Part shown: positions 5,015 to 49,300 of the stretch, piece after piece
Layout of the letters: the number at the start of each line of letters is the position of its first letter
Numbering within the stretch: the first letter of the stretch is position 1
Origin: an uncultured Candidatus Saccharibacteria bacterium
Lineage (GTDB): Bacteria > Patescibacteriota > Saccharimonadia > Saccharimonadales > 2-12-FULL-41-12
Direction of reading: 5' to 3'
NCBI GenBank assembly: GCA_964615775.1
Contig: CAZTQB010000001.1
Location: 60,599 to 124,598, forward strand
DNA length: 64,000 nt
The notes under the pieces: generated by a model
Databases searched by the model: none
What the model was told of the DNA's origin: nothing
What the model saw: only the letters and a program-made list of their open reading frames with translations
Made by a program: the position numbers and the translations under genes

Positions 5015-5452
5015 GCAGCTTTGCATCAATATATAAAGTACTAAAATTTCGAACAATGCAAAACAGTAATCATGTAGGTTTATTTCGGACAATACTGTTT
5101 TACATATTACTTTTTATTAATTTTTTAATACTAAGCGTTTTTAGTATGGGCAATTTTAACTTTGGTGACGCCTCCAAAAGACAATCTAGAGTATGATGCA
5201 GGTGTGGGAATGTGTATTATGATTTGTATTTTTTTATGACATTTTTTACACCCTTTGCTTTCTTAGTTAAATACTTCTATGGCAGACCAAAAATTGTTTT
5301 TAAAAATAAGATTGCTAACGTAGCTGCTTTGCTGGTGCTTTATGTAAATTTGGCTCTAATCATTTTAGTATTTTCTTCATATATTGGCTCTTCACTTCTA
5401 TCATTGGCTGAAAAATTTCGGTAGGATTGTTTGCTAGCCTTTAATAAAATAA

Positions 5453-5479
5453 TTGGCACTCTGGGTTGACGAGTGCCAA
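5453..5479. promoter_or_regulatory. CIRCE-type inverted repeat (HrcA operator-like) upstream of clpC
   Basis: TTGGCACTC-tgggttgac-GAGTGCCAA is a perfect 9-bp inverted repeat with a 9-nt spacer. CIRCE consensus is TTAGCACTC-N9-GAGTGCTAA. It lies about 46 nt upstream of the clpC start. Confidence 0.6.
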
Positions 5480-5525
5480 TCTTTGCTTTATCATAAATGT
5501 TAGTGAGCTGTAACCTCGCTAGAAA

Positions 5526-8018
5526 GTGTGGCAAAATATGAATCCAATTTCACCTGATTTTCAAGAATTTTTGAATCATTTGACCAATGACGCTCTGATG
5601 TCGCTTAGAAATGCCGACTCTATTGCTCGTGGTACGGGTAATCCTTACGTTGGCACCGAACATATTCTGTTAGGTATTTTAGCTCAAGAATCGTCAGTTG
5701 GTTCAAAAATTTTGGAAGGTTGCGGTATAACACTGACCAAAGCTCGTCACAAGCTTAGCACTTCGACTCAGCCAATTCAGACCTATGAGGCTAAGGGCTT
5801 AAGCGAAGTTGCTAAATTAACGCTGAGAATGGCTTATGAAATATCGCAGGATTATGGTCAGGACTTTTGCGGCACTGAACACATACTATTAAGCTTGCTC
5901 AGCCAAAAGAACGGTCGAGCTATTGAGATGCTAAAAGAAATGGGTGTTGATACTGGACAGTTAGTTTTAGAGATTGAAAAGGTTGTAGCTAAGCAAAATG
6001 AAAGTGGACATGGTGGTGTAGAGATTTTAAACAAAGTCAAAAAGTCCAAAAACACAGTTTTAGATTTGTTTGGGATTGATCTGACATCTCAGGCTCGGGC
6101 AGGTAAGTTGGATCCGGTCATTGGACGTGAGGCACAAATTAGACGCGTAATTACTATTTTGAGTCGTCGAACTAAAAATAATCCGGTGCTTATTGGTGAA
6201 CCGGGTGTTGGTAAAACAGCTATTGTCGAAGGTTTGGCTAGCCGAATTGTGGCCGAAGATGTGCCAGATACACTGCTCGACAAAAAAATTTACACGCTCG
6301 ATCTCGCTGGCATGATAGCTGGCACTAAATATCGTGGTGAATTTGAAGATAGGCTAAAAAAATTGATGAAAGAGTTGGAAACATCGAAAAACGTTATTGT
6401 GTTTATAGATGAGCTGCATTTGTTAGTTGGAGCTGGTGCTGCTGAAGGAGCGATGGACGCGGCCAATATACTAAAACCAGCTTTGGCTCGTGGTAAACTT
6501 CAGCTTATTGGTGCAACTACTACAACTGAGTACACCAAATATATTGAAAAAGACGGTGCTTTAGAACGACGTTTACAGCCAGTGCAGGTACCAGAGGCTA
6601 CCGAGCAGGAATCGTTACAGATATTAAAAGGGCTAAAAAAGCATTATGAGTCATTTCATAACGTCAAGATTGGCGATGATGTTTTAGAAGACACGGCTCG
6701 GTTTGCTACACGCTACATTCGTGACAGATTTTTGCCGGATAAAGCGATTGATTTATTAGATGAAGCAGCTGCACATCTGAGAGTCGATAAAGCCAAGTCT
6801 TCACCGGAGCTACGTAAAGCACAAAAAGATTTGCAAATTTTACAGCTTAAGATTGAAGATGCCGCTGCCGCCGAAGACTATAAATTGGCCGCTGACTATA
6901 AAACTCAGGCATCGAAGCTAGCTCAGAAACTATCAGATATGCAAATTGACCAAAAAAATGAAGAAAAATTGGTCTTAAGTAGCGATGATGTAGCGAAAGT
7001 TGTATCTCGGATTACCGGTATACCAGTCAGCAATGTAATAAAAAGTGAAGCAAAGCATTTATTAGCTCTCGAGAAGCACCTTGCTAAGCAGATTATCGGT
7101 CAAAATGAGGCCATTGAAGCTGTGTCGAAAGCTGTGCGGAGAAGTCGCAGCGGAGTATCCGATATTCATAGGCCAAGTGGCTCGTTTATTTTCCTGGGGC
7201 CAACTGGTGTTGGAAAAACTGAGCTTGCCAGAGTATTGGCCAAAGAGTTTTTTGGCAGCGAGAATAATCTTATAAAGATTGATATGAGCGAATTTGGCGA
7301 AAAGCACACAGCTTCGCGATTGGTTGGTGCAACAGCTGGCTATGTTGGCTATGATGATGGTGGTCAATTAACAGACAAAGTTCGTCGTCAACCATACAGT
7401 TTAGTTTTATTTGATGAAATCGAAAAAGCCCACCCCGATGTCTTTAACTTGTTATTGCAGATTCTGGAAGATGGCCAGTTAACAGATGGCAAAGGTCGAG
7501 TAATTGATTTTTCTAATGCAATTATTATTATGACTAGCAATATCGGAGCTGAAAAGCTGCAAAAAGAATCGCGTTTAGGTTTTGAGGTTAGGACCAAAAA
7601 AGATGCTGAAGACTTAGATGACTTACACGAAAAAAATAAGCAGTCTGTACTAGAATCTTTGCAAAAAATTATGCGTCCTGAGCTACTTAATCGAGTTGAT
7701 AAAGTAATTGTTTTTCGTTCACTGACTAGAGACGAAATTAAACAAATATTGGATATTCAGTTAGCTAAAATATCAGCTAGGTTAATCAAATCTGGTTTGA
7801 TTATAAAAATGTCTAGTGCAGCTAAGAACTATTTGGCAGAAAATGGTTATGATGTAAAAAATGGAGTGCGACCACTACGTCGAATTTTGCAGGAAACTAT
7901 CGAGGAAGAGATTGCCGACGGCTTGCTTGCTCAGCGTTATGTACCAGGTGTTACAGTAGAAGTTAGCCTCAAAAATGGCAAACTTGCCTACACTGCCGTA
8001 GCCGAAAAGGCTAAATAA
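5526..8018 (+). CDS. clpC: ATP-dependent Clp protease ATP-binding subunit ClpC (class III AAA+ chaperone)
   Basis: Two Clp_N repeats, then AAA-1 ([15 protein letters not shown], Walker B IVFIDELH), a short UVR-like linker ([26 protein letters not shown]) rather than a long ClpB M-domain, then AAA-2 ([11 protein letters not shown]...LFDEIEKAH). The start is probably the ATG at 5538 (MNPISPDF). Confidence 0.85.
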
Positions 8019-8074: not shown

Positions 8075-9055
8075 ATGAAATCAAAAACAATCTTAAAAGT
8101 CACCGGTAATTTATTATTTCTCTGTCTAGTCGGGCTGATTATTTACGGAATTTTTAATACTCGTAAAGTAATGGATTACGTTATTTTACATAACTATAAC
8201 CCTCCACAGAGAGTTGTAGAAACTGCCAATAACGCTGAGATGACCGACAAAACTCGCCAAGTTTTTTATGTCAATAAACCAAGTTTTCAGGAAAAAGCAG
8301 ACTTTAAAAATTCTTGTCCACGTGCTGAACAAACCATTGTTTTAGGCTGTTTTGTATCCAATAAAGGTATTTTTATATTAAATGTTCATGATCAGCGACT
8401 CAGTGGGGTTACTGAGGTGACAGCGGCTCACGAAGTACTACATGCCATGTACGACAGACTAAGCAGTTCCGAGAAAGCAAAAGTTGATGCTATGACGGCT
8501 AAAGCGTTCTCTCAGCTCGATAATCAGCGAGTTCGTGACAATGTCGAGGCATATCGCAAGAGTGATCCGTCGGTCGTGCCTAACGAGCTACATTCGATTT
8601 TGGGCAGTGAGATCCGTAATCTACCGCCTGATCTGGAAGACTACTATAAACAATATTTTACAAATCGAGCCAAAATAGTTGATATTTCTGAAAAATACGA
8701 AAAAACTTTTACCGATATCGAGAGCCAAACTAAAACGCTAGAAGCGGATTTGACAAGCTTAAAGAAAGAGCTTGACGATAATGAGGCATCGCTTAATTCA
8801 TTATCGGGCAAAATCGAGCAGCAAAAGAGCCGGCTTGATAGGCTGCTGAAATCTAATCAAGTTGAGCAGTATAACAATGGCGTACCGGAGTTTAATGCTA
8901 TGATTAGCCAGTATAATAGCTTGGTTGAAGTTAGGAAAAGTGATGTGGCGTTATATAACTCTAAAGTCGAGCAGATTAATAGTTTAGTTACAGCTGAAAG
9001 TAATTTGTACAACGAGCTTAAAGTTGATGCAACACCAATCAAGGAAAGCCAATAA
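8075..9055 (+). CDS. Hypothetical membrane-anchored protein with HExxH motif and C-terminal coiled coil
   Basis: N-terminal TM helix (LLFLCLVGLIIYGIF), a central region containing TAAHEVLHAMYD (HExxH), and a C-terminal heptad-rich segment. No confident family assignment from sequence alone. Confidence 0.5.
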   Translation: MKSKTILKVTGNLLFLCLVGLIIYGIFNTRKVMDYVILHNYNPPQRVVETANNAEMTDKTRQVFYVNKPSFQEKADFKNSCPRAEQTIVLGCFVSNKGIFILNVHDQRLSGVTEVTAAHEVLHAMYDRLSSSEKAKVDAMTAKAFSQLDNQRVRDNVEAYRKSDPSVVPNELHSILGSEIRNLPPDLEDYYKQYFTNRAKIVDISEKYEKTFTDIESQTKTLEADLTSLKKELDDNEASLNSLSGKIEQQKSRLDRLLKSNQVEQYNNGVPEFNAMISQYNSLVEVRKSDVALYNSKVEQINSLVTAESNLYNELKVDATPIKESQ

Positions 9056-10417
9056 ATGGTGGCTAAAAGTAGTGTTAGGTTTACTTGCAACAACTGTGGG
9101 GCAAGCTTTGGCTCGTGGTCTGGCAAATGTAGTAGCTGTAGTGAGTGGAATACTCTAGTAGAAGAAGCAGTGATTGTGACCGGTAAAAATGCTAAACAGT
9201 CAAACAATGCCCACAAACTACCGGTTGAAAGTCTGAAAGCAGCTTTTCATCATGATGACTCACAGAGACGACTAACAACTGGCATGAAGAACGTTGACGA
9301 AGTCTTGGGTGGTGGTTTTGTTAAAGGCGGAGTGGTTTTGATTGCTGGCCAGCCAGGGATTGGCAAAAGTACGTTGCTGCTTCAGATTGCAGCTGGACTA
9401 GGCAAAGAAAAATATAAAATTTTGTATGTTAGTGGTGAAGAATCAGCTCATCAAGTTGCAATGCGAGCGACTCGTCTAGGAGCTGATTCTGATAATGTTA
9501 GTTTGGCTTCGGGTAGTAATGTTGAGGATATTATTAAGACGATGTTAGATGATAAGTACGATTTGGTAGTGGTAGACTCGATACAAACCATGATAACAGA
9601 GGCAGTTTCGTCGGCAGCTGGTACAGTTTCACAGATTACAAACTGTGCAAACTTATTGATTAATGCAGCAAAAACATCGAATATTGCTGTGGTATTGGTT
9701 GGTCATGTCAACAAAGAGGGTACAATTGCTGGACCGAAGATTTTGGAGCATGTTGTCGACACTGTTCTGCAACTAGAAGGCGATAGGTACGGTGGCTTTA
9801 AGATACTAAGAAGTATCAAAAACCGTTATGGCTCCACCAACGAAACGGGTATTTTTGAGATGGTCGAAAACGGACTTATGAACGTTGATAATCCATCTGA
9901 AGCATTGCTTAGTGAAAGACAGATTACCGATGGTTCAATAGTCTTGGCAGCAATGGAAGGTAGTCGACCAGTTTTGGTTGAGGTGCAGGCTTTGGTCAAT
10001 AAAACAAGTTATGGCTACCCTAAACGAGCGGCTAGTGGCGTGGAGCTTAACAGAGTAAATTTGCTAATAGCTATGCTAGAACGTCGGACTAAACTTAATC
10101 TTGCTGATCAAGATATATACATCAATATCGTTGGTGGTATTAAAATTGTCGATCCTGGGTTAGATCTGGCGATTTGTATGGCAATTGGCTCGGCAAGCAA
10201 AGGCTTAAAATTGAAAGATGGAGTTGTAGTTTACGGCGAAGTTGGGTTGTCTGGTGAAGTTCGACATGTACCGTTTGCCGAAAAACGCTTGTCTGAGGCC
10301 AAAAAACTTGGTTTTGACACAGCCATTGGTCCCAGGCTGAAAAACTCAGCTAAAAACACCATTTTATGTCCTGTGCCAGACGTACGAACAGCTCTCAATA
10401 CTTATTTAAAAATATAA
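9056..10417 (+). CDS. radA: DNA repair protein RadA/Sms
   Basis: N-terminal C4 zinc finger (CNNCGASFGSWSGKCSSCSEW), RecA-like Walker A (GQPGIGKSTLLLQ), KNRYG motif and a Lon-protease-like C-terminal domain. Confidence 0.9.
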   Translation: MVAKSSVRFTCNNCGASFGSWSGKCSSCSEWNTLVEEAVIVTGKNAKQSNNAHKLPVESLKAAFHHDDSQRRLTTGMKNVDEVLGGGFVKGGVVLIAGQPGIGKSTLLLQIAAGLGKEKYKILYVSGEESAHQVAMRATRLGADSDNVSLASGSNVEDIIKTMLDDKYDLVVVDSIQTMITEAVSSAAGTVSQITNCANLLINAAKTSNIAVVLVGHVNKEGTIAGPKILEHVVDTVLQLEGDRYGGFKILRSIKNRYGSTNETGIFEMVENGLMNVDNPSEALLSERQITDGSIVLAAMEGSRPVLVEVQALVNKTSYGYPKRAASGVELNRVNLLIAMLERRTKLNLADQDIYINIVGGIKIVDPGLDLAICMAIGSASKGLKLKDGVVVYGEVGLSGEVRHVPFAEKRLSEAKKLGFDTAIGPRLKNSAKNTILCPVPDVRTALNTYLKI

Positions 10418-10427
10418 AGGAAAATAG

Positions 10428-11120
10428 ATGTATTTAAATATTATTCAAATAACTCTACTACTAACAATAATTTTTCTATTGTTTCGTAAGAGTTCAAAAC
10501 ACTTATCCAAAAATAGCCAAAATGTAGTACTTGATACTAGTGTGGTGATAGACGGACGGATTTTGGAGTTAGCAAAGACTAATTTTTTACCTGGTAAATT
10601 AATTATCCCAAAGTTTGTAGTGGCTGAGCTACAACTCATTGCCGATAGTAATGATTCTCATAAACGAGAACGTGCAAGATACGGGCTTGATGTTGTAAGA
10701 CTACTCCAGGAGGAACTTAGTTCACATGTTATTTTGTCCAGCAAAGATTATCCAGGTATTAAAATGACCGATGATAAATTAATTAAGATTGCCAAAGATC
10801 AAAATTGTTACCTATGTACCAACGACTATAATTTAAATAAAGTCGCTTTGGTGGAGGGCTTGAGTGTACTTAATATTAACGAGCTAGCTCAGAGTTTACG
10901 ACCTACTGCTCTTCCTGGTGAAAGACATATTATAAAAATCCTCCAGAAGGGCAGTAACCGCGACCAAGGTGTTGGTTATTTAGATGATGGCACTATGGTA
11001 GTCGTTGGAGGTGCCGGTAATAGTATTGGCAAGAAAATCGAGGTTAATGTAACTAGGATGTTACAAACAGAAGCCGGTAAGATGATTTTTGCCAATAAAA
11101 TCATGCCACCAAAGAAATAA
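10428..11120 (+). CDS. PIN/TRAM-domain protein (YacL-like)
   Basis: N-terminal TM, a PIN-like region (VVLDTSVVIDGRI...) and a C-terminal TRAM-like beta region (KIEVNVTRMLQTEAGKMIFA). It lies immediately downstream of radA, as yacL does in Bacillus. Confidence 0.65.
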   Translation: MYLNIIQITLLLTIIFLLFRKSSKHLSKNSQNVVLDTSVVIDGRILELAKTNFLPGKLIIPKFVVAELQLIADSNDSHKRERARYGLDVVRLLQEELSSHVILSSKDYPGIKMTDDKLIKIAKDQNCYLCTNDYNLNKVALVEGLSVLNINELAQSLRPTALPGERHIIKILQKGSNRDQGVGYLDDGTMVVVGGAGNSIGKKIEVNVTRMLQTEAGKMIFANKIMPPKK

Positions 11121-22590: not shown

Positions 22591-23868
22591 ATGCATGTAA
22601 GAATCACTGAAAAAAGTGCTACTGAGGTAATTGTAAATGTTACAGCGGCTCCAGAAGACCTAGAGCCAATCAAACAAAATATCTTAAAAAAACTTAGTAA
22701 AAGTGTAAAAATTGCTGGTTTTCGCCAAGGTAAGGCACCGGCTCAATTGGTAGAGAAAAGTCTTGATCCACAAGTTTTACAAACTGAATTTTTAGATGAA
22801 GCACTGACAAGGCTATACTCGCAGGCTGTTGCTAATGAAAAAATTCGTCCAGTTACTGAGCCAAAAGTTGAGATAAAGAAATTTGTACCATTTAGTGTGT
22901 TGGAATTTGATGTATCAACTGGGGTCGTAAATATTGAAAAATTGGCTGATTTCACAAAATTTGAATTAAAAACTACAAACCAAAAACCTGCAAATGGTGA
23001 TATTGAGAAGGTAGTCGATGATTTAGCCGTTCGAATGAGTGACCGTAAAGAGGTGAAACGGGCAGCTAAGACTGGTGATGAAGTAATCATTGATTTTAGG
23101 GGTGCGGACACTAAGGGCCAGCCGATAAGTGGCGGCGAAGGCAAGGAGTATCCGCTGACTTTAGGTTCAGACAGCTTTATACCTGGCTTTGAAGCTAATC
23201 TAGTCGGCTTAAAGGCTGGTGAAAGCAAAGCTTTCGATGTAACTTTCCCAAAAGATTATCAAGCTAAGGCTTTGGCTGGCAAAAAGGCTAAATTTGAAGT
23301 AAAAGTTCAAAAAATTCATGAGCTAACAAAGCCAAAAATCAATGATGAATTTGCCCAAAAAATGGGGCTATCTGACTTAAAGGCACTAAAAGAAGATGTT
23401 AAAAAGCAATTACAATACGAAGCTGACAACAACAACCAGCGAGCGAAACAAAATGAAATAATTGAACTACTTTTAGCCGGTAGCAAGGTAGATTTACCTG
23501 AGTCACTAATCGATAAGCAAGTAAATACAGAGCTAGAGGAAGTGAAGCGTAATTTTGCCTACAGAGGTCAGACATATGATGAATTTTTGGCAAACGAGAA
23601 ATTAACGGACGAAGAATATCGATTAAAAGAGCTTCGACCACGGGCCGAAAATCAGATTAAAGCATCTATTTTACTAAGCGAAATTGCCACTGACGAGAAC
23701 TTAACAGTGTCAGAGCAAGAGCTAGAGATGCAAATGCAGGCTCTAAAAGCTCAATATAAAGACCCGGCTATGCAAGCTGAATTGTCTAAGGCAGCTACAC
23801 GTCAAGATATTGCCAGCCGAATTTTAACCCAAAAAGTTCTAGATTCCATTTTGCAGAAAGTTGGCTAA
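22591..23868 (+). CDS. tig: Trigger factor
   Basis: N-terminal ribosome-binding signature (GFRQGKAPAQLVEK), central FKBP-type PPIase domain (GDEVIIDFRG...GFEANLVGLKAGESKAF) and C-terminal arm domain. 425 aa. Confidence 0.9.
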   Translation: MHVRITEKSATEVIVNVTAAPEDLEPIKQNILKKLSKSVKIAGFRQGKAPAQLVEKSLDPQVLQTEFLDEALTRLYSQAVANEKIRPVTEPKVEIKKFVPFSVLEFDVSTGVVNIEKLADFTKFELKTTNQKPANGDIEKVVDDLAVRMSDRKEVKRAAKTGDEVIIDFRGADTKGQPISGGEGKEYPLTLGSDSFIPGFEANLVGLKAGESKAFDVTFPKDYQAKALAGKKAKFEVKVQKIHELTKPKINDEFAQKMGLSDLKALKEDVKKQLQYEADNNNQRAKQNEIIELLLAGSKVDLPESLIDKQVNTELEEVKRNFAYRGQTYDEFLANEKLTDEEYRLKELRPRAENQIKASILLSEIATDENLTVSEQELEMQMQALKAQYKDPAMQAELSKAATRQDIASRILTQKVLDSILQKVG

Positions 23869-24502
23869 AGTAAGTATGTATGATGATAAAAGAATGGTCG
23901 ACGGTCTAGTGCCTCCGGAACTTAGGTTTGAGATTCGTTATCCAAATGGTTATCGTTTATCTGAAGAGTCACCTGGAACACGTATTTTGTTCCCCGATAT
24001 ATCGGACGGAAAAATGCCGGAGCTGTTTGTTCCTCAAGGTGCACTTGAACATATGTTTATTGCTGCTATGCGTGAGTGGCCAGGGCAAATTTATTCAGTT
24101 AGGCAAGCTGGCATGCAGAAAGAGGAAGATAGTCTTTGTGGAATTATTGTGGCTGATAGTGTGGCAGACGAAAGAACCAGTGTTCTTAAGTTTCCGCAAC
24201 ATAAACTTGGACTAAAGATAGTGTATCTATCAAAAGGTCATGGATCTAGCAACAATCGACTAGCTGGCTATGGGATAAATGTTTTAACAGAACCAGTATT
24301 TTCGATAGCTGAAAAAAATAGAATTAGATGGGGTATGTCGTCCGTAGAAATTACTCGTTTGTGGGCAGAAGACAGCCTAGGACTAGCCATGGAAGCAAGT
24401 CGAGGAGAAGGCTCTCGAATACAACAGTGCGGACGGTTGCTTCTCGATATGACCAATGCTGACTTACGTACGAAGCAATCTGGCCCTAGAGATATTTGTT
24501 AA
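23861..24502 (+). CDS. Hypothetical protein (wedged between tig and clpP)
   Basis: 213-aa ORF overlapping the tig stop by 8 nt (TTG at 23861; an ATG at 23876/23894 is more likely). No motif recognised. Composition looks somewhat more GC-rich than its neighbours. Confidence 0.4.
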   Translation: MAKVSMYDDKRMVDGLVPPELRFEIRYPNGYRLSEESPGTRILFPDISDGKMPELFVPQGALEHMFIAAMREWPGQIYSVRQAGMQKEEDSLCGIIVADSVADERTSVLKFPQHKLGLKIVYLSKGHGSSNNRLAGYGINVLTEPVFSIAEKNRIRWGMSSVEITRLWAEDSLGLAMEASRGEGSRIQQCGRLLLDMTNADLRTKQSGPRDIC

Positions 24503-24512
24503 AAATAATAAA

Positions 24513-24539
24513 TTGGCACTCAGGGTTGACGAGTGCTAA
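24513..24539. promoter_or_regulatory. CIRCE-type inverted repeat (HrcA operator-like) upstream of clpP
   Basis: TTGGCACTC-agggttgac-GAGTGCTAA. The right arm matches the CIRCE consensus exactly and the left arm has one mismatch (TTgGCACTC). It ends 22 nt upstream of the clpP ATG. Confidence 0.6.
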
Positions 24540-24561
24540 TTGTTAACCTATACTAAATGTT

Positions 24562-25158
24562 ATGAATAAGCCACAAAATGTTTTGATACCAACTGTCATT
24601 GAGCAAGAAGGCCGCATCGAGCGAGCCTATGATATCTATTCGAGGTTACTAAAGGACCGGATTATTTTTCTTGGGACCGATGTTAATGAACATTCGGCTA
24701 ATCTGATTGTTGCTCAACTATTATTTTTGGCTAACGAAGATTCTAAAAAAGATATCTCATTATATATAAATAGTCCGGGTGGCAGCGTTTATGATGCCTT
24801 GGCAATCTATGACACTATGCAGTTTGTTAAGCCAGATATTGCCACTTACGGTATAGGCGTACAGGCATCAGCGGCAGCTTTTTTGCTTAGTAGCGGAGCT
24901 AAAGGCAAACGGAGTTTGCTAGAACACGCCACAGTGATGATACATCAACCATCTAGCGGTACACGTGGCAAAGTGACAGATCAGGAGATTGATCTAAGGG
25001 AGTCACTTAGAGTTAAACAGCTGTTAGAAAAAATAATGGCCAAAAATACTGGCCAAAAATTGCCAAAAATTCACGAAGATATGGAACGCGATAAGTGGCT
25101 AACAGCCGACGAAGCTGTAAAATACGGTATTGCCGACCAACTGATTAAAACTATCTAG
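24562..25158 (+). CDS. clpP: ATP-dependent Clp protease proteolytic subunit ClpP
   Basis: [30 protein letters not shown]...[21 protein letters not shown]...MIHQPSSG: near-canonical ClpP sequence with catalytic Ser/His regions. Confidence 0.9.
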
Positions 25159-25215: not shown

Positions 25216-25872
25216 ATGAAGGACATTTATATGAGAGAAAATACATTTGAAAGATACTTACAAGTACCAGGTCAACAACTAGGTATGGAGTTAGCACCGG
25301 CTGGAACTTCATTTCCTGCGAGAGAAGCAGTAATTGCTGGAACAGCGTTATTAGGTGTTGTGTCGTTTGGTGCAAGTTTTGCAAAACCAGAAAATGCTGA
25401 AGCAGCACCGAAATCAGGAGCGTGTACGCCTGAGCAAGTAAGTACACTTGGAAGTATTGTTGAAGATACAGCCTATACTACAAAGGCCAATGCTGATGGT
25501 GATAAAAATAACGGCCAAATTAGCTACAAAGTTAAATTATCTACAAAAAATAATGGAATTGTAATTGGTAGAACGATATTTAATGAAGGAAAAATTATAG
25601 CGGATTTACCGGATAGAAGTGATGCTATTACGGCAGAAGTTTTTACCTATAAATCTCCTGATAAGCCTTATGACTATCGTGGCTTTCTGAAGCAATCTGA
25701 CGGAAGTATTATAGTTAAAGCAGGTAACTATGTTGACGGGACTCAAAGGTCTTTTAATACAAACAAAAAATGCACGAAACAAAATTATGCATGGGCTGTA
25801 GCTGTAGCGAAAAACGGCAATTCTGTTATAAAAGCTGCCCTTAAGCAACAGCCTTTTTATAAAATTCCATAA
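25216..25872 (+). CDS. Hypothetical secreted protein
   Basis: Hydrophobic signal-like segment (AVIAGTALLGVVSFGASFA) followed by a T/N/K-rich soluble region with 3 Cys. No family recognised. Confidence 0.4.
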   Translation: MKDIYMRENTFERYLQVPGQQLGMELAPAGTSFPAREAVIAGTALLGVVSFGASFAKPENAEAAPKSGACTPEQVSTLGSIVEDTAYTTKANADGDKNNGQISYKVKLSTKNNGIVIGRTIFNEGKIIADLPDRSDAITAEVFTYKSPDKPYDYRGFLKQSDGSIIVKAGNYVDGTQRSFNTNKKCTKQNYAWAVAVAKNGNSVIKAALKQQPFYKIP

Positions 25873-25923: not shown

Positions 25924-26409
25924 ATGGATATGGAACTACTAAAGCAACAATTAGATAGGCCAAAAAGCGAAATAACATTTACTTTTGAAGATAATAGAGC
26001 AGTGGGTAGGGGTTGTCGAGGATCCGCCTCTGAGCTTGATGTTGCAAAAATAGCCGTTCGCTCATACCTGGACCCCGAATTGGAAGTTTTGACGCCTTGC
26101 GAGAAAGATGCTGCCATAGATCTTGAAAGTATTTTGTTAGATACTGGAACTGTTGACACAAAAACTGCCAAAAATGGTATACGACATCAGTCTGTTGGGT
26201 TAACTTATAGTCAGGTTGTGACTCTCGGTGTAGTCATCAGTAAGTATCGTCAAAGTCAGAAAAGGCTATTAGAGGTGATTGATTCGAATTTTATTGGTCA
26301 ACGTAACTCAATTAGTTGGCGAATAGAATCAACTTGTGCAGTTTCTGATAGAGTCAATGAATTGCTGACGCAAAGTCAAAGTTCGCAAGATGATAATATT
26401 GCTGCTTAA
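25924..26409 (+). CDS. Hypothetical protein
   Basis: 161-aa ORF with no recognisable motif. It lies in the slot where rplKAJL normally precede rpoB. Confidence 0.35.
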   Translation: MDMELLKQQLDRPKSEITFTFEDNRAVGRGCRGSASELDVAKIAVRSYLDPELEVLTPCEKDAAIDLESILLDTGTVDTKTAKNGIRHQSVGLTYSQVVTLGVVISKYRQSQKRLLEVIDSNFIGQRNSISWRIESTCAVSDRVNELLTQSQSSQDDNIAA

Positions 26410-35372: not shown

Positions 35373-36845
35373 ATGAGTCCTGTTGATTTTGGAAAATTTC
35401 GTGGTCAACATAAAGAAGACAACGAAATTTCTAATCAACCCCATCAGGAGAAAGTCAGCCAGCACGAAGTACAAGTTCGTGTTCGTGATTGGTCGGAAGT
35501 CAACTCTGGGTCGAGACTAAAGTTCAATCGAGCAGAAGTCTCCAACAGGTTTACACATGCATTCAAGAAGCCTGGCTTTGTGGCTTGGGCATGCTTGTTC
35601 GGTGTAACTATTGTACTCTTGGCCGTGATTGCCCTGAGTGCTAGCACGATCATCAGTGCAGTTGCAATCATGCTAATGATTGCCGTAGTAACGTTTGGTA
35701 TCTATCGAGTTTATACTCGGAGCGAGGTACCAGACTTCGAAACTCCCATCGAGACGGTTTTGCCCGATCGAGGAGTCTCGAAGGTTCGCTACATGGTAAA
35801 TCGAAAGTTTGGGCGACCCGATATTGTTCCGAGTATCAACAAGGAGCAAGAGAGCGATATTTTCGAGCAGCGGATTAAGCTGCTTGAAGGCAGGATTCGC
35901 GATATCGTCAACCTTGGTGTCCACCCGAACATTTGGGTAGGCAACCAAAAAGGTAGCTCGGCGAAGTCAGTCATGGCAGTTATCATGGGTGAAATCTTGG
36001 CAGAAATCACTCGTCGAATTGTTGTGCTGCTCCCATCGTCTACCTCAACTCAGACTGCAACCGCAGGAAATTTGGCAGGTGTACGTGGTAAGACCCTAAC
36101 TTTGCGTCAGTATGCCACCAAATTGCAAGATGAAGAGATTAGCTTTCACGAGCTTTTTAAGATGGTTGCAGTAACCAAACACGGACTGCGTGTTATCTCT
36201 GAAGACACCATATCTAACGACAAGAGCAATTTCTCGAAGGTAAGATGGTTGAAAGTCCACTCGCATCTTCGAGAGAACGCAGAAATCATCATTTCCGATA
36301 CCGGGAATGATGATGCATATGCCTACACCGTGACTTCGGTTGCGATGAGGCAGTCTGACGTGGTGGTGGTTGCTGCAAACCGACTTATGAAGCAAACTTT
36401 GGAGTCGGCAGGAGCAACACTGGCGTACTATATGCACATGCAAAAAAACATTCGACAAGCAGTGGCAGGAGAAGGTCAAGCACTGGAAGGCGACTTGATT
36501 CCTGTCAGTGAAAAACTTGAGAATGCAGTCGTAGTGATGAATGCTTATGACCATGATGAAGGCAACGAGGAGTTTGTTTCTCGGCTCTCTAGTGGAATTA
36601 AGCTGTCAGGCGGAAATCCTTCGCTGTTCTCTAAGACAAGAGTATTTGGGGTGCAGGAAGATGATCATCTGTATGACACAGTTGAAGGGCTCGATTACAC
36701 TCAGATGGCTCGAGCAACATATTTCGACTATCTAGTAGTGATCGTTGCAGTATTTGAACAAGCAGCTCTGTTGCAAAAGGTCAAGGTTCCTAAGCGACAC
36801 TGGCTGATCAAGAACGTGGGCATTATTATGCCGTCGCCCTCGTAA
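35373..36845 (+). CDS. Island gene 1: membrane-anchored protein with degenerate P-loop (possible diverged coupling/ParA-like ATPase)
   Basis: 490 aa. Two N-terminal TM helices (FVAWACLFGVTIVLLAVIALSASTIISAVAIMLMIAVVTFGIY), then a ~400-aa soluble domain containing IWVGNQKGSSAKSVMAVIMGEI. This resembles a P-loop but is degenerate (QKGSSAKS versus GxxxxGKS). Confidence 0.45.
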   Translation: MSPVDFGKFRGQHKEDNEISNQPHQEKVSQHEVQVRVRDWSEVNSGSRLKFNRAEVSNRFTHAFKKPGFVAWACLFGVTIVLLAVIALSASTIISAVAIMLMIAVVTFGIYRVYTRSEVPDFETPIETVLPDRGVSKVRYMVNRKFGRPDIVPSINKEQESDIFEQRIKLLEGRIRDIVNLGVHPNIWVGNQKGSSAKSVMAVIMGEILAEITRRIVVLLPSSTSTQTATAGNLAGVRGKTLTLRQYATKLQDEEISFHELFKMVAVTKHGLRVISEDTISNDKSNFSKVRWLKVHSHLRENAEIIISDTGNDDAYAYTVTSVAMRQSDVVVVAANRLMKQTLESAGATLAYYMHMQKNIRQAVAGEGQALEGDLIPVSEKLENAVVVMNAYDHDEGNEEFVSRLSSGIKLSGGNPSLFSKTRVFGVQEDDHLYDTVEGLDYTQMARATYFDYLVVIVAVFEQAALLQKVKVPKRHWLIKNVGIIMPSPS

Positions 36846-36869
36846 GTATCTCCACTAAAAGGAGGAGAC

Positions 36870-37193
36870 ATGAGAAACCTCAAAATGTGGCTGAGCAGTT
36901 TGGTGATGATTTTGGTGCTGCCAGCTACCAGCTTGGCAATTAACACCAACCCCAAAGCACCGCCTGTGCTTGGACCAATTGGGCAGAACTGGGTGCAATG
37001 GGCAGTCTGGATTTTCATCGTCATTGCCCTGATCTTTGTCGGAATTGGCTTGCTTAAGTGGATTTCGGCGATCGGTAACGGTCGAAGCTCGGGACAAGCA
37101 ATTGCCATGATTGTGGCAGCCATCGTTGCCATAATCATTTTGTCCGACCTTCAGGGTTGGACGACACGACTCAGCCAGCTTTTCAGGCCGTGA
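36870..37193 (+). CDS. Island gene 2: small pilin-like membrane protein (VirB2/TrbC-like candidate)
   Basis: 107 aa. Signal peptide (…LVLPATSLA|IN) followed by two hydrophobic helices separated by a short loop. SD AAAGGAGGAGAC lies upstream. Confidence 0.4.
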   Translation: MRNLKMWLSSLVMILVLPATSLAINTNPKAPPVLGPIGQNWVQWAVWIFIVIALIFVGIGLLKWISAIGNGRSSGQAIAMIVAAIVAIIILSDLQGWTTRLSQLFRP

Positions 37194-37256
37194 GTCAATT
37201 TGGTGTCAGTCGCCTAGGTATCTTTGTCCTAGGCGACTAAACCATAGGAGAGAAAA

Positions 37257-37976
37257 ATGAATTTCAGAAAGCTGAGATGGTTTGTAGTGCCATTCGCTTT
37301 ATTGATGGTAATTGCAGTTGTGCTTGCGAATATTGACCATACGGTTACGCGAACGCAAACTATTACCAAAGATGCGAGTGGAAATACTGTCAGTAACCCA
37401 CCATCGCCTGTCGATCCTTCATCATCGAGTGTTGATGATGCACGTCGTTCGGCTGGCAATACGGTGGCGGTGTTGACATCGGCTTTTCTTTCACCTGAAG
37501 CGGACTTTCGTAATCAGGTGGATGAAGTTGCTACTCAGGAAACTGCCAGTCAACTTCGTAAGCTTTACTCTGGCTATGAAGCTGATGGTAAGCAGGTTCC
37601 TGCAGTAGGAGGAGATGCAATGGCAAAAAGCTTAGGGTACTCGTCTCTAGCTGATTTTCAGCAAAAAGGCAGGTATGACTTCCAAGCACTTCAGTACAAA
37701 GTCAAAAGTTTTGAAGCAGGAAAAAGTGCTGTGGTTGGTGTTTACGGCATCACAACCGTAATAACCAAGAAAAATCAGCGTTATTTTCAGCAGGATGTTC
37801 CATCGATCCAGATCTTGAGAATGGTTTGGCAAGATGGAAAGTGGCGTTATGACAAGCAACTTCGTCCACTAAAGGGTGAAGTACCAAGCTTCACAGAATC
37901 TGGCCAAAGTTTTACTCAGATTCTGGCGAAGTACAAGCTAGTCCTCGAGAATCAGAGGTACAAGACTTATGACTAA
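37257..37976 (+). CDS. Island gene 3: bitopic membrane protein (VirB8-like candidate)
   Basis: 239 aa. A single N-terminal TM (LRWFVVPFALLMVIAVVLANI), then a ~200-aa extracytoplasmic domain. Size and topology fit VirB8/TcpC-like proteins, with no sequence-level proof. Confidence 0.3.
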   Translation: MNFRKLRWFVVPFALLMVIAVVLANIDHTVTRTQTITKDASGNTVSNPPSPVDPSSSSVDDARRSAGNTVAVLTSAFLSPEADFRNQVDEVATQETASQLRKLYSGYEADGKQVPAVGGDAMAKSLGYSSLADFQQKGRYDFQALQYKVKSFEAGKSAVVGVYGITTVITKKNQRYFQQDVPSIQILRMVWQDGKWRYDKQLRPLKGEVPSFTESGQSFTQILAKYKLVLENQRYKTYD

Positions 37977-39093
37977 AACTCGTTGGCTCTCTAGCAGTTT
38001 GGTGATGCTTGTTTGCTTGTTCGGATTTATGAGCTGGCAAATGGCAAAACCAGACAAAGCTGGAGCAGATATCCTTGGGATTCCGACACCTTGTGATGTC
38101 ATTCCAAACCAAACCGCCTCCAACGTCTGTGGGGGGATCATTAATCCGATAGCTGGAGCCAATAATGTAATTGGTGCCATTCCGGGTGTGCCAAATCCGT
38201 CACAGATACCTGGCAAGGCGATTGGGAAAATAAAAGATGAAGTAGTTAGTCATACCGTTGAGCCAATGCTACGTGAAGTAGCTAAATTCTTTGGTATGGG
38301 AGTAATTTGGGGCTTGAAGATGGAAATCAAGTTCATCACACGAACAACATCACCGAACCTTAATGCTGCATGGTTCTCTGTGGCCTATCAGCAAATTCTT
38401 TGGCTTGCTTACATTTGGGCGTACATAGCCTTTATGTATCGGCTTGTAAAAGGAGCAAAAGAAGCGGATCTTGCTATCCACTTCTCCACATTCTTCAAAA
38501 TGGGAGTGTTTATTGCTCTCACAGGAGGAATGATGCTGACGGCAGCCTCTTGGCTGGTGACATTGGTAGACAAAAAACTCGTACCTGAACTCGCTGATGT
38601 AATGGGAGTTCAATTGGGCGATGTTATGAAAAACGTTGAGGGCTACCTCAACCAAATTATTGCTGGACAATTAGGCGTAGTAGCGGTACTGTTCACAATT
38701 TTTGTAATTGGAACAGTACTGTCTGGTGCAACGTTGTTTGTAATGGTATTTCGTTATATGTTTATACCATTACTGATCCTTGCTGCTCTATTCGCGTTAG
38801 CTCATAGCATCGGCGAAGAATCATGGGACAGGGCTAAAAAGGCCTTCTTGACCATCGGAGCTTGGATCGCATTTCCTGCAATATTGCTGTTTGTACTACA
38901 GTTGGGACTAGCTATGACATTAGAAGCCAATGATGCATTTACCACAATGATCATTCTATGTGCCACAACTGTGATGCCTTTGATCATCGGTATTTGGGCA
39001 ATCAAGAAAATCAGTGGTGCTGATTTCAAGGTTGAACCAGTCAAGCGAGCCGTGATTGCTCGTGCCTATTACACTAAGTTCAGGTCGAGTTAA
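37969..39093 (+). CDS. Island gene 4: polytopic membrane protein (VirB6/TrbL-like candidate)
   Basis: 374 aa. Signal/TM1, a ~70-aa extracellular loop, then about 6 further TM helices. Confidence 0.45.
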   Translation: MTKTRWLSSSLVMLVCLFGFMSWQMAKPDKAGADILGIPTPCDVIPNQTASNVCGGIINPIAGANNVIGAIPGVPNPSQIPGKAIGKIKDEVVSHTVEPMLREVAKFFGMGVIWGLKMEIKFITRTTSPNLNAAWFSVAYQQILWLAYIWAYIAFMYRLVKGAKEADLAIHFSTFFKMGVFIALTGGMMLTAASWLVTLVDKKLVPELADVMGVQLGDVMKNVEGYLNQIIAGQLGVVAVLFTIFVIGTVLSGATLFVMVFRYMFIPLLILAALFALAHSIGEESWDRAKKAFLTIGAWIAFPAILLFVLQLGLAMTLEANDAFTTMIILCATTVMPLIIGIWAIKKISGADFKVEPVKRAVIARAYYTKFRSS

Positions 39094-39152
39094 TGATTAA
39101 CCGTTCAAGGGTAAAGGCATGGATGCCTTCAACTAATGTTGGGAGGTGAGAA

Positions 39153-40727
39153 GTGTCTGAGCGACATCCGATTGAAAAAGAGCGTGGAATTCGAATTGTT
39201 GGGTCGCTAAGGCTCGATCATTCCACGATCTTTGCAGTTGTGCTGGTTGTAATCCTTTTGGTGCTTTTGCAGATTGTACCATTTGGAATATGGCTAGGCA
39301 TTACGTTTCTGGCAGCTGCTTTTTGGGGACTGCTAGTTTATGTCCCAGTTTCCAGAGACGGCAAACCGCTCCTCGCAATCCTCTATCGAAGGGCGAATTT
39401 TGACCTCGGTCAGAATGAGTTTTTCGACAAACGAGTCGAACGAGGAGAAAACTTCGAACTAACTAAACGTGCTAAGCGTGAATTCGCTAAGCGTTTGGGC
39501 AAGTTAGAACTTGTTCCATTTGAGATTTCGGGACAGAAGCTGTGCATTTATGATGATAAGCGAGATGAGACTTACACGTTCGTTGTGTATGTCAAAATCA
39601 GCTCTCTCTTCAATGCCAGCTCGCAAGAACGAGAATACCGTACAGAAGCATTTTCGAAGTTGCTCGATGTTGTAAAGAAGCATGAATTTTACCGATTCTC
39701 TTGGCAGGTGCAAGTTTTGCCAGGAGAAGCATTGAATCTTCGTTCAGAACGAGAAACAATGCTTAAGGTTAATGATCTAGTGAATAATAAATCAGACAAA
39801 GTCCACCAATTTATCGATGCTTACGAGCAAAAGATAATGGAACTGTCGTCTGAGAGAGTGGTGTCTCTACGGTTTACTGTCAAAAAAGATGATCCTCGAA
39901 TTAGGCACGCTCGCAAAAAGACAAAAATTACGACTGGCGAGTTTTTGTACAATCTCGTTGGTCAACTTGCCGATGAAGTAGGCCTGACCGATAGTCTGGC
40001 TAACAATCCATTTGGCATAAGTCAAGTTGATGCCCACACTTACAATGAGTCAGTTATGGACATCGGTCTGTTACTAGATCAAGTTTCAAAACTGCCTTTG
40101 GTTAGGGAGATGCGTAAGACTGGTATTCTCGAGCAATCTGACAAGCAAATTGATGAAAAGCTCGGTTTACCGACAGTCTGCGGTTTTGAAGCGAATCATG
40201 CCTGGCTCGGTGAAACGGTTCATATGAGCTTTTTCATCGAAAGTCTCTCCGAGTACGGATTGACGCCCACAGAATTTTTGTGGTTGATGAACCTCAGTAA
40301 TGAAGAAGGGCAGTCTGCAAAAGTAATTCCTTTGACTGTGACTGCTGTATATCAGCCAGTTTCACGGTCATCGACCAGTCGTATCTCGAGGTTCAATCGT
40401 AATACGACCAGCTCTATCATCGCCGACAAGCAGCTAGCTGGTTCAGCGGTGGATGCAGATCTGCAACGTGAGGCAGAATTGGCGAAACAAAAAACCATTC
40501 GGTTGGCATCGAGCCGTTCTGAATCACTTCGGATGAGAGTGTATGTTTCACTCCAAGGCAGTTCCGTCGAAGAAGTTACTGCCAATGCTGAGATTCTTCG
40601 CTCGACCGCAGCTAGGAATAACTGCAGTGTGCAAGGTCTTACGCTTAGGCAGTACGAAGGTGTATCTGTTGTGTTGCCCCTTGGACGTGGCCTCGCAGCT
40701 TTGAACTTCAAGGGAGTTTTCAAATGA
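39153..40727 (+). CDS. Island gene 5: VirB3-like TM pair fused to VirB4 N-terminal-domain-like region (candidate)
   Basis: 524 aa. GTG start 6 nt after GGGAGGTGAGAA. Two N-terminal TM helices, then a large soluble domain. It sits immediately upstream of the VirB4-type ATPase domain gene. Confidence 0.4.
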   Translation: MSERHPIEKERGIRIVGSLRLDHSTIFAVVLVVILLVLLQIVPFGIWLGITFLAAAFWGLLVYVPVSRDGKPLLAILYRRANFDLGQNEFFDKRVERGENFELTKRAKREFAKRLGKLELVPFEISGQKLCIYDDKRDETYTFVVYVKISSLFNASSQEREYRTEAFSKLLDVVKKHEFYRFSWQVQVLPGEALNLRSERETMLKVNDLVNNKSDKVHQFIDAYEQKIMELSSERVVSLRFTVKKDDPRIRHARKKTKITTGEFLYNLVGQLADEVGLTDSLANNPFGISQVDAHTYNESVMDIGLLLDQVSKLPLVREMRKTGILEQSDKQIDEKLGLPTVCGFEANHAWLGETVHMSFFIESLSEYGLTPTEFLWLMNLSNEEGQSAKVIPLTVTAVYQPVSRSSTSRISRFNRNTTSSIIADKQLAGSAVDADLQREAELAKQKTIRLASSRSESLRMRVYVSLQGSSVEEVTANAEILRSTAARNNCSVQGLTLRQYEGVSVVLPLGRGLAALNFKGVFK

Positions 40728-40803
40728 TTTTATCAAAGTTTACTCAACATAAACTAAAGATAAAATCGACCTCTTAACCTAAAAACGAGGGAGGTGAGAA
40801 GAA

Positions 40804-42156
40804 TTGGCTATTGATAAAAGCCATCTTGCACGAATTGTTAGCGGTGATACTTTGCCGACTTTTCGTGAAATGACCGAAGACCTAGCTCCTGTCAATCCGC
40901 TGTGTCTGGAACACGGATTTATCAATCCTAAAACTGGGCAAAAATTGATTGGCGTACCTCTGGGTATTGCTGGTCTCGGTGGAATAGCGGGTAACTTTGA
41001 GTTTTGTGAGTACACCGCCCATCAGGCTGATCCTGAAACGGCGTTTTCGCTAAACTCGATTGTCTTTGGACAAACAGGCTATCGCAAGTCATCTGGAGAA
41101 AAAATAAGAATTTTGCGTGATACTTTGCTTTTTTCACGCAACTATCTGGTCACTGATCGAAAGGGTGAGTACCGTGTGCTAGCGGGATACATCGACGGTG
41201 CAAAAGTCCTTAACTTCAGTGACAATGCTCAGTACTTCATTAATCCTTTGGACCCTGTCATGGGACTAGATGCTCAATTGGAGCTACTGACTGCATTGAT
41301 TGTAACCGCAGGAAAACACTTCACTCAGGGGCTTACACCACTGGAGAATACTCTCTTGTGGAACTCGATTATCGAATGTCACAATTCCCCTGGGATAATA
41401 GGTATTCCGACTTTGCCGAGCTTGATCGAAAAACTCCGAAACCCTTCTGCTAGTACAGTCGAAGATTTGAGTGTCGGAAATATCGATGATATCAACAAGC
41501 TTAGTGCAAATCTCAGATTGACGCTCGAACGTCTATCTGAAAAAGGTAATCTTGCTGGAATGTTTCACAAACCAACGACGCCAGGGCTTTTTGATGCAGT
41601 GCCGTTGCTGGTTCTAGACTGTGAGGGACTTGATGGCGAGAAAGCGGTTGTAATGACCACTCTCATCAACTTCTTTACTCTCGAAAAAAATGCAAAATCA
41701 TCTTCAGATAACAGGTTTCATCACGTTATCCATGATGAATCGTGGGACCTTGCAGCATACAGCGGATTTGTCAGTTCGGTGAGGCGGGCCTATAAGCTCG
41801 GACGGAGCAAAGGTTTTGGTAACCGAATGGTGGTTCACCATTGGCAAAACCTTATTCGATCTGCTACATCTCAGATCGAAGACATCGCCAGTGACACCTC
41901 ATTGGTTATCAGTTATCGGCAAAACCGAGCTGAACTTGAAGCTAGTTCACATCTGTTTGGGTATACAGATAATGAAATTGAAAGGATTGTAAAACTTCCT
42001 CAAGGCCATGCTCTGTATAAGTTCACTACTGGCAACATACCCGCACTCGAGGTGCGATATGTAGCCATGCCGTGGGAGATTCCGCTGCTCGAAACAAGCC
42101 ACCTCGTTAAGGGCAAAAGCGGACTTTCATCAAGTGAACTGGCGTCAACTTCCTAG
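40804..42156 (+). CDS. Island gene 6: VirB4/TrbE-family ATPase C-terminal domain
   Basis: 450 aa. TTG start 9 nt after GGAGG. P-loop-like IVFGQTGYRKSSGEK (aligns with VirB4 GxTGxGKS but has Arg at the second conserved Gly) and Walker B/VirB4 signature LLVLDCEG...HHVIHDESWDLA (DEAW-type). Confidence 0.6.
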   Translation: MAIDKSHLARIVSGDTLPTFREMTEDLAPVNPLCLEHGFINPKTGQKLIGVPLGIAGLGGIAGNFEFCEYTAHQADPETAFSLNSIVFGQTGYRKSSGEKIRILRDTLLFSRNYLVTDRKGEYRVLAGYIDGAKVLNFSDNAQYFINPLDPVMGLDAQLELLTALIVTAGKHFTQGLTPLENTLLWNSIIECHNSPGIIGIPTLPSLIEKLRNPSASTVEDLSVGNIDDINKLSANLRLTLERLSEKGNLAGMFHKPTTPGLFDAVPLLVLDCEGLDGEKAVVMTTLINFFTLEKNAKSSSDNRFHHVIHDESWDLAAYSGFVSSVRRAYKLGRSKGFGNRMVVHHWQNLIRSATSQIEDIASDTSLVISYRQNRAELEASSHLFGYTDNEIERIVKLPQGHALYKFTTGNIPALEVRYVAMPWEIPLLETSHLVKGKSGLSSSELASTS

Positions 42157-42168
42157 GGTTGAGATATC

Positions 42169-43287: not shown

Positions 43288-43749
43288 GATGAGGCCAACC
43301 TCCTCTAGGACCAATCAAAATCAAAAAGGAATCACAAGACACAAACGAAAACGTACTAACAGGTTGGAGTTCCTATCTTCGTCTAGAGTTCCAGTTGAAA
43401 TATTTATATATATTATCAACTGTCGAGCCAGACCAAAGATTGCGGATTCGCCACCAAAAAGGAACTTTTTTGTCCACCTACGTGGACGACTAAGTTCAGC
43501 GTCCGGCTTTAGTCGAGTGCCAAAACTAGCTCTTTAAAAAGAGCAGCCATTAACACTCGACTTTAGCCAGTAAGGCTTTGAGTAGAATGCTAGCAGAATT
43601 GTTAGACTTTCCTCGCCAAATTTATGGCTCTAAATATTTCAGATGCTGGTCTCGCTCCCGAGATCTCCTGACATATTTAGTGCCTTTTGCTACATAAATG
43701 TGTATTTATGCTGATGATTCCAAAAGGATGAAAGCAAAAATTAAGCTGT

Positions 43750-49106: not shown

Positions 49107-49300
49107 TTTTCTCCTTCTTAGCCTCTTAATAGAGAGTATATCATTATATTTACAAACTAAATTGTTAGCTATGTTACATTTAATATCTTTACATGGAGTA
49201 CTAAAATAGGTTAATATATCTCGGTAACATATGTGTGCCTTTAGTTTTGCCTTGGCTACGCATATTTTAATAACAATAATTAATTTTAAGGAGCTAAATA

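Follow-up and report, generated by a model that had tools for sequence, protein, structure and literature searches.

The window, a 64,000-nucleotide stretch of DNA from a Candidatus Saccharibacteria bacterium, contains two CIRCE-type inverted repeats, one ahead of clpC and one ahead of clpP, which we consider likely to be HrcA operators that overlap housekeeping-σ promoters and repress both genes. With HrcA operators on both promoters, one repressor would probably control the chaperones together with the main protease of this lineage. HrcA repression of such a ClpCP regulon is well supported by the comparative evidence laid out below.

We searched the whole window for the CIRCE consensus (TTAGCACTC-N9-GAGTGCTAA) with up to three mismatches. 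This yielded just two sites (Table 1), compared to a chance expectation of 0.05 (mean of dinucleotide-preserving shuffles), and none of 100 shuffles reached two. Allowing four mismatches added no further CIRCE-like site in the 64 kb, and the core GCACTC-N9-GAGTGC is likewise confined to the two clp sites; that is, within the window the motif does not turn up at unrelated positions. Both sites are 9-bp inverted repeats with a 9-bp spacer, and their sequences are exactly those given in an earlier note on this DNA, which had proposed that the Clp genes belong to an HrcA-type regulon. At position 3, both read TTGG where the textbook consensus has TTAG. At the clpC site, this A-to-G change is balanced by a T-to-C change at the mirror position, and these two symmetric deviations leave the palindrome perfect.

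Table 1. Operators, promoters, and genes of the clpC and clpP loci, in positions of the window
Feature	Position	Strand	Description
clpC operator, CIRCE-type	5453-5479	+	TTGGCACTC-TGGGTTGAC-GAGTGCCAA; palindromic at 9/9 positions; 2 mismatches to consensus
clpC promoter, predicted, σ70-type	5466-5494	+	−35 TTGACG 5466-5471; 17-nt spacer; −10 TATCAT 5489-5494
clpC leader 5′-terminal hairpin, predicted	5500-5522	+	UUAGUGAG-N7-CUCGCUAG; −7.4 kcal/mol; directly 5′ of the RBS region
clpC	5538-8018	+	826 aa from ATG 5538 (likely start); ORF open from GTG 5526
Coiled-coil ORF	8075-9055	+	56 nt past clpC
radA	9056-10417	+	0-nt gap to the coiled-coil ORF
PIN+TRAM YacL-like gene	10428-11120	+	10-nt gap to radA
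clpP operator, CIRCE-type	24513-24539	+	TTGGCACTC-AGGGTTGAC-GAGTGCTAA; 1 mismatch to consensus
clpP promoter, predicted	24526-24554	+	−35 TTGACG 24526-24531; 17-nt spacer; −10 TATACT 24549-24554
clpP	24562-25158	+	198 aa; NF001368 282.5 bits versus cutoff 249

The genes downstream of the two repeats are, as named before, those for ClpC and ClpP. The first encodes a ClpC-type unfoldase with two Clp_N repeats, AAA, AAA_lid_9, AAA_2, and ClpB_D2-small domains and a short middle domain, and its D2 carries an LGF tripeptide (RLGFE), which we take to be the ClpP-docking loop. The best solved relatives are ClpC1, Staphylococcus aureus ClpC, and Bacillus subtilis ClpC/MecB, with which it is colinear in one full-length stretch (E value of ∼1e-225); ClpB structures align in two pieces only, for which reason a ClpB identity was rejected. 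One protein (P0241) is 100% identical to the window ClpC, and homologs with 66 to 88% identity are named Candidatus Saccharimonadales or Saccharibacteria. This bears on the description of the clpC-radA-yacL locus as Firmicute-like: the order of clpC, coiled-coil ORF, radA, and PIN+TRAM gene stands, but the organism is a Saccharibacterium of the CPR and not a Firmicute.

Although both repeats have the position 5′ of the clp genes that was claimed for them, they are embedded in the promoters rather than merely upstream, with the predicted −35 element inside the spacer. The predicted clpC promoter is the top promoter-like site between 4900 and 5700 and the clpP promoter is the top site of its region, each agreeing with the consensus at 10 of 12 positions. 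In both cases, the −35 hexamer TTGACG starts within the CIRCE spacer, taking up its final five bases, and runs one base into the right arm. CIRCE therefore surrounds the −35 element of these consensus-predicted promoters, while the rest of the right arm fills half of the spacer between −35 and −10. In other words, by consensus prediction only, an operator overlaps a housekeeping-σ promoter ahead of a stress gene at both loci. With this layout, a bound HrcA dimer would cover the −35 element and the spacer, thereby denying RNA polymerase access to the clpC and clpP promoters.

Given that loci retrieved by a pattern scan are chosen through the motif itself, we assembled an operator-blind sample, for which nine ClpC homologs (66 to 88% identity) were chosen on protein similarity alone and their contigs were fetched. 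A CIRCE repeat with zero to two mismatches lies 49 to 69 nt 5′ of the clpC ATG in all eight informative loci; in the ninth (L258), the contig breaks off after 86 nt of upstream sequence, in which none was found. Over the window and the eight operator-blind loci, column conservation reached 0.96 and 0.95 for the two arms, compared to 0.67 for the spacer and 0.56 to 0.59 for the flanks. The −35 element (TTGACT, TTGACC, or TTGCAT) is found at the left and not the right end of the spacer in seven of these eight loci, so that the promoter register shifts by 4 nt between clpC loci with the arms unmoved, suggesting a constraint on the arms that is separate from that on the promoter. Two registers are thus seen in Saccharibacteria: TTGACG at the right of the spacer (the window and L250) and TTGACT, TTGACC, TTGACA, or TTGCAT directly after the left arm (L251 to L257 and L259), with unchanged arms in both.

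Beyond this sample, we scanned GTDB species representatives with the pattern TTRGCACTC-NNNNTTGAC-GAGTGC, which yielded at least 120 matches, those listed being mainly from Lachnospiraceae, Saccharibacteria, and other Patescibacteria. The first downstream gene in Saccharibacteria was a ClpC ortholog in at least 10 loci (54 to 68% identity), a ClpP ortholog in at least 10 (69 to 83%), groES in at least 7, and groEL in at least 1. Among the matches listed, the downstream gene was a short hrcA or dnaK in other CPR lineages, and clpB was among the downstream genes in Lachnospiraceae and Tenericutes. Scanning JGI metagenomes for the TTGG variant (at least 120 matches) added at least 15 clpP and at least 7 clpC loci, groES/groEL loci, and many short hrcA genes. 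Taking both scans together, the operator precedes clpC in at least 17 and clpP in at least 25 Saccharibacteria loci. It is thus conserved at orthologous promoters of both genes, in operator-blind loci for clpC and in motif-selected loci only for clpP; the clpP figures, coming mostly from such loci, carry an ascertainment bias, and they include more than 20 loci in which a clpP-type operator stands before ClpP orthologs of 68 to 83% identity.

The same operator is present at the classical HrcA targets of Saccharibacteria relatives, namely before groES (L018, L022, L037, L039, L063, L069, L089, L133, and L147), groEL (L114), and hrcA-grpE-dnaK (L224, L239, and L259), these being sites in relatives and not in the window's own genome. 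The TTGGCACTC arm shared by the two clp sites is common in relatives, hrcA promoters included. The earlier note had held that a genome without hrcA, or without CIRCE at groESL and dnaK, would speak against its proposal; at the level of the lineage, hrcA is conserved in Saccharibacteria and CIRCE is found at groES/groEL and at hrcA-grpE-dnaK. The 64-kb window itself contains no hrcA, as had been noted, and no groEL, dnaK, or ctsR either, and its genome presumably encodes HrcA elsewhere.

In L224 and L239, the genes are arranged as (lepA-)gmk, then CIRCE with a promoter, then hrcA-grpE-dnaK(-dnaJ). The encoded HrcA proteins have 234 and 238 amino acids, respectively, and match PF01628 and PF03444, with scores above the cutoffs (67 bits on PF01628 in L224 and 24.7 bits on PF03444 in L239). 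The lineage's repressor therefore shows the N-terminal winged helix-turn-helix (wHTH; PF03444) and the C-terminal/GAF-like domain (PF01628) of the HrcA family. The L224 protein (P0121) is identical to one from Candidatus Saccharibacteria bacterium RIFCSPLOWO2_01_FULL_48_13. The best 120 clusters listed for it are 76 to 88% identical and 231 to 251 amino acids long; several have NCBI names of Saccharibacteria or Saccharimonadales, and many are called “heat-inducible transcriptional repressor” by JGI. Judged by these homologs, a short HrcA of ∼235 amino acids is conserved across Saccharibacteria. It was reached via the metagenome motif scan only; tblastn for hrcA in the first 120 loci found the gene in non-Saccharibacteria loci only, and a homolog search seeded with a short HrcA from Parcubacteria returned Parcubacteria and Moranbacteria proteins only. 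The protein-selected hrcA locus L259 has TTAGCACTC-TTGACATGA-GACTGCTAA before hrcA-grpE-orf-dnaK with the −35 element at the left of the spacer, a layout that explains why the first scan pattern missed most Saccharibacteria hrcA promoters. Downstream of this main operator, just 5′ of the hrcA start codon, L259 has a second, weaker CIRCE-like repeat (2470 to 2498; CTAGCAATT-N9-GAGTGCTAA, 3 mismatches), which recalls the double CIRCE reported at hrcA of Lactobacillus plantarum (PMC3842655).

The HrcA proteins of L224 (1603 to 2307), L239 (2520 to 3236, minus strand), P0001, and L055 (5861 to 6541) were aligned with those of L106 and L009. With 227 to 254 amino acids, HrcA of Saccharibacteria and other CPR is without one contiguous block of ∼100 amino acids of the 340-amino-acid HrcA. 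This block is presumably the inserted dimerizing domain of the Thermotoga maritima 1STZ structure. A phmmer comparison of the lineage's HrcA with 1stz_A (E = 2.4e-16) aligned residues 2 to 116 only, and ECOD places HrcA of Southlakia epibionticum in 1stz domains A1 and A3 only. The DNA-binding wHTH is conserved in the lineage. Given the missing insert, the dimerization mode of the short HrcA and its dependence on GroEL could differ.

In S. epibionticum, the HrcA homolog is SEML1_0720 (K03705), in the same gmk-hrcA-grpE-dnaK order as in L224 and L239 (PMC10633639). This gene is essential at all three Tn-seq time points (ES/ES/ES), while clpC, clpP, and tig are nonessential (PMC10633639), and its essentiality may reflect polarity on the essential grpE-dnaK or toxicity of derepression. 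The tables list clpP of this organism as SEML1_0493 and clpC as 0512, and they contain two sigma factors, labeled RpoD and “RpoS” (PMC10633639).

In Gram-positive bacteria with a similar gene order, the regulator expected at clpC would be CtsR, whose absence from the locus was correctly noted earlier: nusA and small hydrophobic ORFs are found upstream of clpC, where ctsR-mcsA-mcsB is absent. We searched the window for the CtsR box, defined as the tandem heptad RGTCAAANANRGTCAAA with up to three mismatches, and obtained 13 matches compared to 10.2 expected, i.e., chance level. None of these lies in the clp upstream regions, and no box in the window has two mismatches or fewer. With no box above chance and no ctsR beside clpC, a class III (CtsR) regulon was rejected. 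The annotation and Pfam tables of S. epibionticum contain no CtsR, McsB, or ClpX, and their one mention of “Lon protease” is the name of a Pfam domain within an unrelated entry (PMC10633639). Unannotated ORFs flanking clpP in the window (23861 to 24502, 25216 to 25872, and 25924 to 26409) were rejected as local regulators, as they have no Pfam or NCBIfam match and no HrcA-like motifs.

Taken together, the HrcA regulon of Saccharibacteria would comprise hrcA-grpE-dnaK(-dnaJ), groES-groEL, clpC (possibly with radA and the PIN-TRAM gene), and a leaderless clpP. Since CtsR/McsB, ClpX, and Lon are not annotated in S. epibionticum, a single short HrcA appears to couple chaperone expression to ClpCP, which would be the only Clp protease. 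Relief of HrcA repression by titration of GroEL is established in B. subtilis (Mogk et al. 1997, as restated in PMC7737663). By analogy, we infer that unfolded proteins would titrate GroEL in Saccharibacteria as well, leaving HrcA inactive and all HrcA operons derepressed together; binding and repression by HrcA at the clp promoters, and the transcription start sites assumed there, are likewise predictions.

If HrcA controlled the chaperone operons only, the palindromes at the clp genes could be bound by some other lineage-specific regulator, or their arms could simply be part of an extended promoter to which RNA polymerase responds. The repeat does overlap the −35 element in every case, and promoter constraint thus contributes to its conservation. 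However, the arms stay fixed despite the 4-nt shift of the −35 element, unlike a pure promoter element, and they match the HrcA consensus at 16 to 18 of 18 positions. Identical arms precede hrcA, groES, and groEL in the same lineage, whose HrcA has kept its DNA-binding wHTH, which makes this explanation improbable. We also give little credence to the notion that the sites arose by chance or are CIRCE remnants in decay, without a regulatory function in this genome, a reading that we regard as the most remote of those weighed here. Spiroplasma does provide documented cases of degenerating CIRCE copies (PMC5138195), and both window sites are off consensus at position 3. The same work found that the functional sites of Mycoplasma gallisepticum are those with two mismatches or fewer (PMC5138195), a range that includes both clp sites. 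The symmetry of the two changes at clpC, the low chance expectation, the wide occurrence of the TTGGCACTC arm in relatives (also before hrcA), and the retention of orthologous sites across 66 to 88% protein identity all argue against decay.

A role of the repeats as RNA, either as terminators or insulators for the genes upstream (the small ORFs after nusA and the ORF at 23861 to 24502) or as mRNA stability elements, is likewise hard to reconcile with the data, and we rate it as very improbable. Each repeat could form a 9-bp stem with a 9-nt loop, and in B. subtilis, mRNA stability is affected where CIRCE is part of the transcript. The clpP element starts 10 nt past the stop codon of the upstream ORF, and a weak terminator-like site was called there on the minus strand (24536 to 24516). 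On the plus strand, however, neither repeat is followed by a T-run and no terminator was called, so that an intrinsic terminator was rejected at both. Moreover, both repeats are upstream of the predicted transcription start sites and hence not part of the clp transcripts, and the arms keep the CIRCE consensus without compensatory changes, which points to recognition by a protein rather than RNA pairing. Repression of clpC and clpP by HrcA thus remains the preferred reading.

The classical HrcA/CIRCE regulon shares with that of Saccharibacteria the 9-N9-9 repeat and its consensus, a repressor of the same family (PF01628 and PF03444), hrcA as the first gene of hrcA-grpE-dnaK with its own operator, and groES-groEL as a further target. 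It differs in that the Saccharibacteria targets include clpC and clpP, with no CtsR found, and in the position of the operator, which is downstream of the −10 element in the classical case but encloses the −35 element of the predicted promoters here. In addition, the Saccharibacteria HrcA is ∼100 amino acids shorter than the classical one and is without the inserted domain. An identical operator-in-promoter layout is found at clpB of Lachnospiraceae and other Bacillota, where TTAGCACTC-NNNNTTGAC-GAGTGCTAA is followed by 17 nt and then a −10 element. The gene there encodes the disaggregase ClpB (TIGR03346, 1346.7 bits, above the cutoff), which has no ClpP docking, whereas the Saccharibacteria gene encodes ClpC with the LGF loop. 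Clp-family genes that carry CIRCE or are controlled by HrcA are also known from one Streptococcus and one Lactobacillus species. In Streptococcus salivarius, clpP is reportedly under dual control by CtsR and HrcA (Chastanet and Msadek, in 2003), so that CtsR coregulates clpP there, while in Saccharibacteria clpC and clpP both appear to be under HrcA alone. Lactobacillus gasseri clpL is placed in the HrcA regulon (Suokko et al. 2008, as restated in PMC3192767). In Bacilli, clpC and clpP belong to a separate CtsR regulon, and the HrcA and CtsR regulons, distinct in Bacilli, are overlapping in streptococci and nested in staphylococci (PMC6305308). Oenococcus oeni has lost HrcA/CIRCE, and CtsR alone controls its chaperone operons and clp genes (PMC6305308). 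Like Saccharibacteria, it thus uses one repressor for both gene sets, but as a mirror image, having kept CtsR where Saccharibacteria have HrcA/CIRCE and no detectable CtsR. In Mollicutes, CIRCE is located ahead of dnaK, lon, and clpB alike (PMC5138195, PMC7737663). Mollicutes resemble Saccharibacteria in their small genomes, few transcription factors, HrcA as stress regulator, and CIRCE at AAA+ protease/chaperone genes; their targets are lon and clpB because they are without ClpP, whereas those of Saccharibacteria, an unrelated CPR lineage with a short-form HrcA, are both ClpCP subunits.

Given the precedents in Mollicutes, L. gasseri, and S. salivarius, HrcA control of Clp-family genes is already established, and the circuit described here is a conserved variant of a well-known one that reveals no new mechanism. 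The present case extends these precedents, judging from the genomes compared, in that both ClpCP subunits appear to be targets, in a CPR lineage without detectable CtsR, and in the conservation of this arrangement throughout the class. A literature search found no paper linking Saccharibacteria or Patescibacteria with HrcA or CIRCE, and knowledge of transcriptional regulation in CPR/Patescibacteria is very scarce. The proposed regulon is compact (four operons and one repressor, with operators within recognizable promoters) and directly testable, and Saccharibacteria have recently been made genetically tractable (PMC10633639). For genetic work on Saccharibacteria, promoters with CIRCE are candidates for expression elements that are stress inducible or HrcA titratable. 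The findings also suggest that these reduced genomes may run protein folding and regulated proteolysis through one switch. In a bolder version, which we consider unlikely, the truncated HrcA would be the sole regulator of proteotoxic stress, would have taken over ClpCP from the absent CtsR/McsB, and would dimerize and sense differently, with its essentiality caused by the toxicity of unrestrained ClpCP and chaperones in an epibiont with a minimal proteome. In that case, the essentiality of hrcA would reflect more than polarity on grpE-dnaK, and the short HrcA would dimerize and sense stress unlike the B. subtilis/T. maritima paradigm.

The clpC leader would be ∼37 nt long, with the hairpin of Table 1 at its start. 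A hairpin of 6 to 9 bp was found at this position in all eight clpC leaders folded (the window and seven operator-blind orthologs), and its inner stems differ between orthologs (e.g., G-C to A-U and U-G to G-C). These hairpins come from single-sequence folds, whose z-scores are modest (+0.3 to −2.6); on a MAFFT alignment of the leaders, RNAalifold predicted no shared structure, since the variable loops defeat alignment by MAFFT. In an Rfam search, a tRNA-Leu was the sole match of the window, with no credible family at the clpC leader. The hairpin may be a 5′ stabilizer stem-loop or a thermosensor. Only 7 nt separate the −10 hexamer of clpP from its ATG, which makes a leaderless mRNA probable. 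Of 26 Saccharibacteria clpP loci, 20 have an in-frame ATG 21 to 26 nt past the end of CIRCE (∼6 to 11 nt past the −10 element); six have a nearby ATG that is not in the ClpP reading frame, which may indicate a small upstream ORF or an alternative start.

Around these two loci, the gene order of the window is pepN, plsC, nusA, clpC, the coiled-coil ORF, radA, the PIN+TRAM gene, PBP1A, tyrS, and recG, and further on hisS, tig, an unknown ORF, clpP, two unknown ORFs, rpoB, rpoC, rpsL, and rpsG, followed by an island of unknown ORFs, fusA, otsAB, tuf, and the S10 operon. No terminator-like site was found between 7950 and 11200, i.e., from clpC through the PIN-TRAM gene, so that radA and its neighbors may be cotranscribed; on this sequence basis, clpC is possibly cotranscribed with the coiled-coil ORF, radA, and the PIN+TRAM gene. 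The order clpC-orf-radA was found again in nine ortholog loci. S. epibionticum ML1 has the same nusA-clpC-orf-radA order (SEML1_0513 to 0510) and shares hisS-tig-orf-clpP-orf-rpoB-rpoC (SEML1_0496 to 0490; PMC10633639 supplementary tables). The gap of ∼440 nt between nusA and the clpC operator (5015 to 5452) holds two small hydrophobic ORFs without a Pfam match (5056 to 5196, 46 amino acids; 5212 to 5424, 70 amino acids); in relatives, it holds other small or 115- to 229-amino-acid unannotated genes in some cases and none in others. Between rpsG and fusA, an island of ∼9 kb (35373 to 44706) splits the usual str operon. Its ORFs have no family matches, with the one exception of a phage-tail-lysozyme domain protein (42169 to 43287), and its GC content of 0.445 to 0.451 is above the ∼0.40 seen elsewhere. 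Finally, a fused trehalose-6-phosphate synthase/phosphatase (GT20 and Trehalose_PPase) is encoded on the minus strand between fusA and tuf (46902 to 49331), representing a stress-protectant pathway within a reduced genome.
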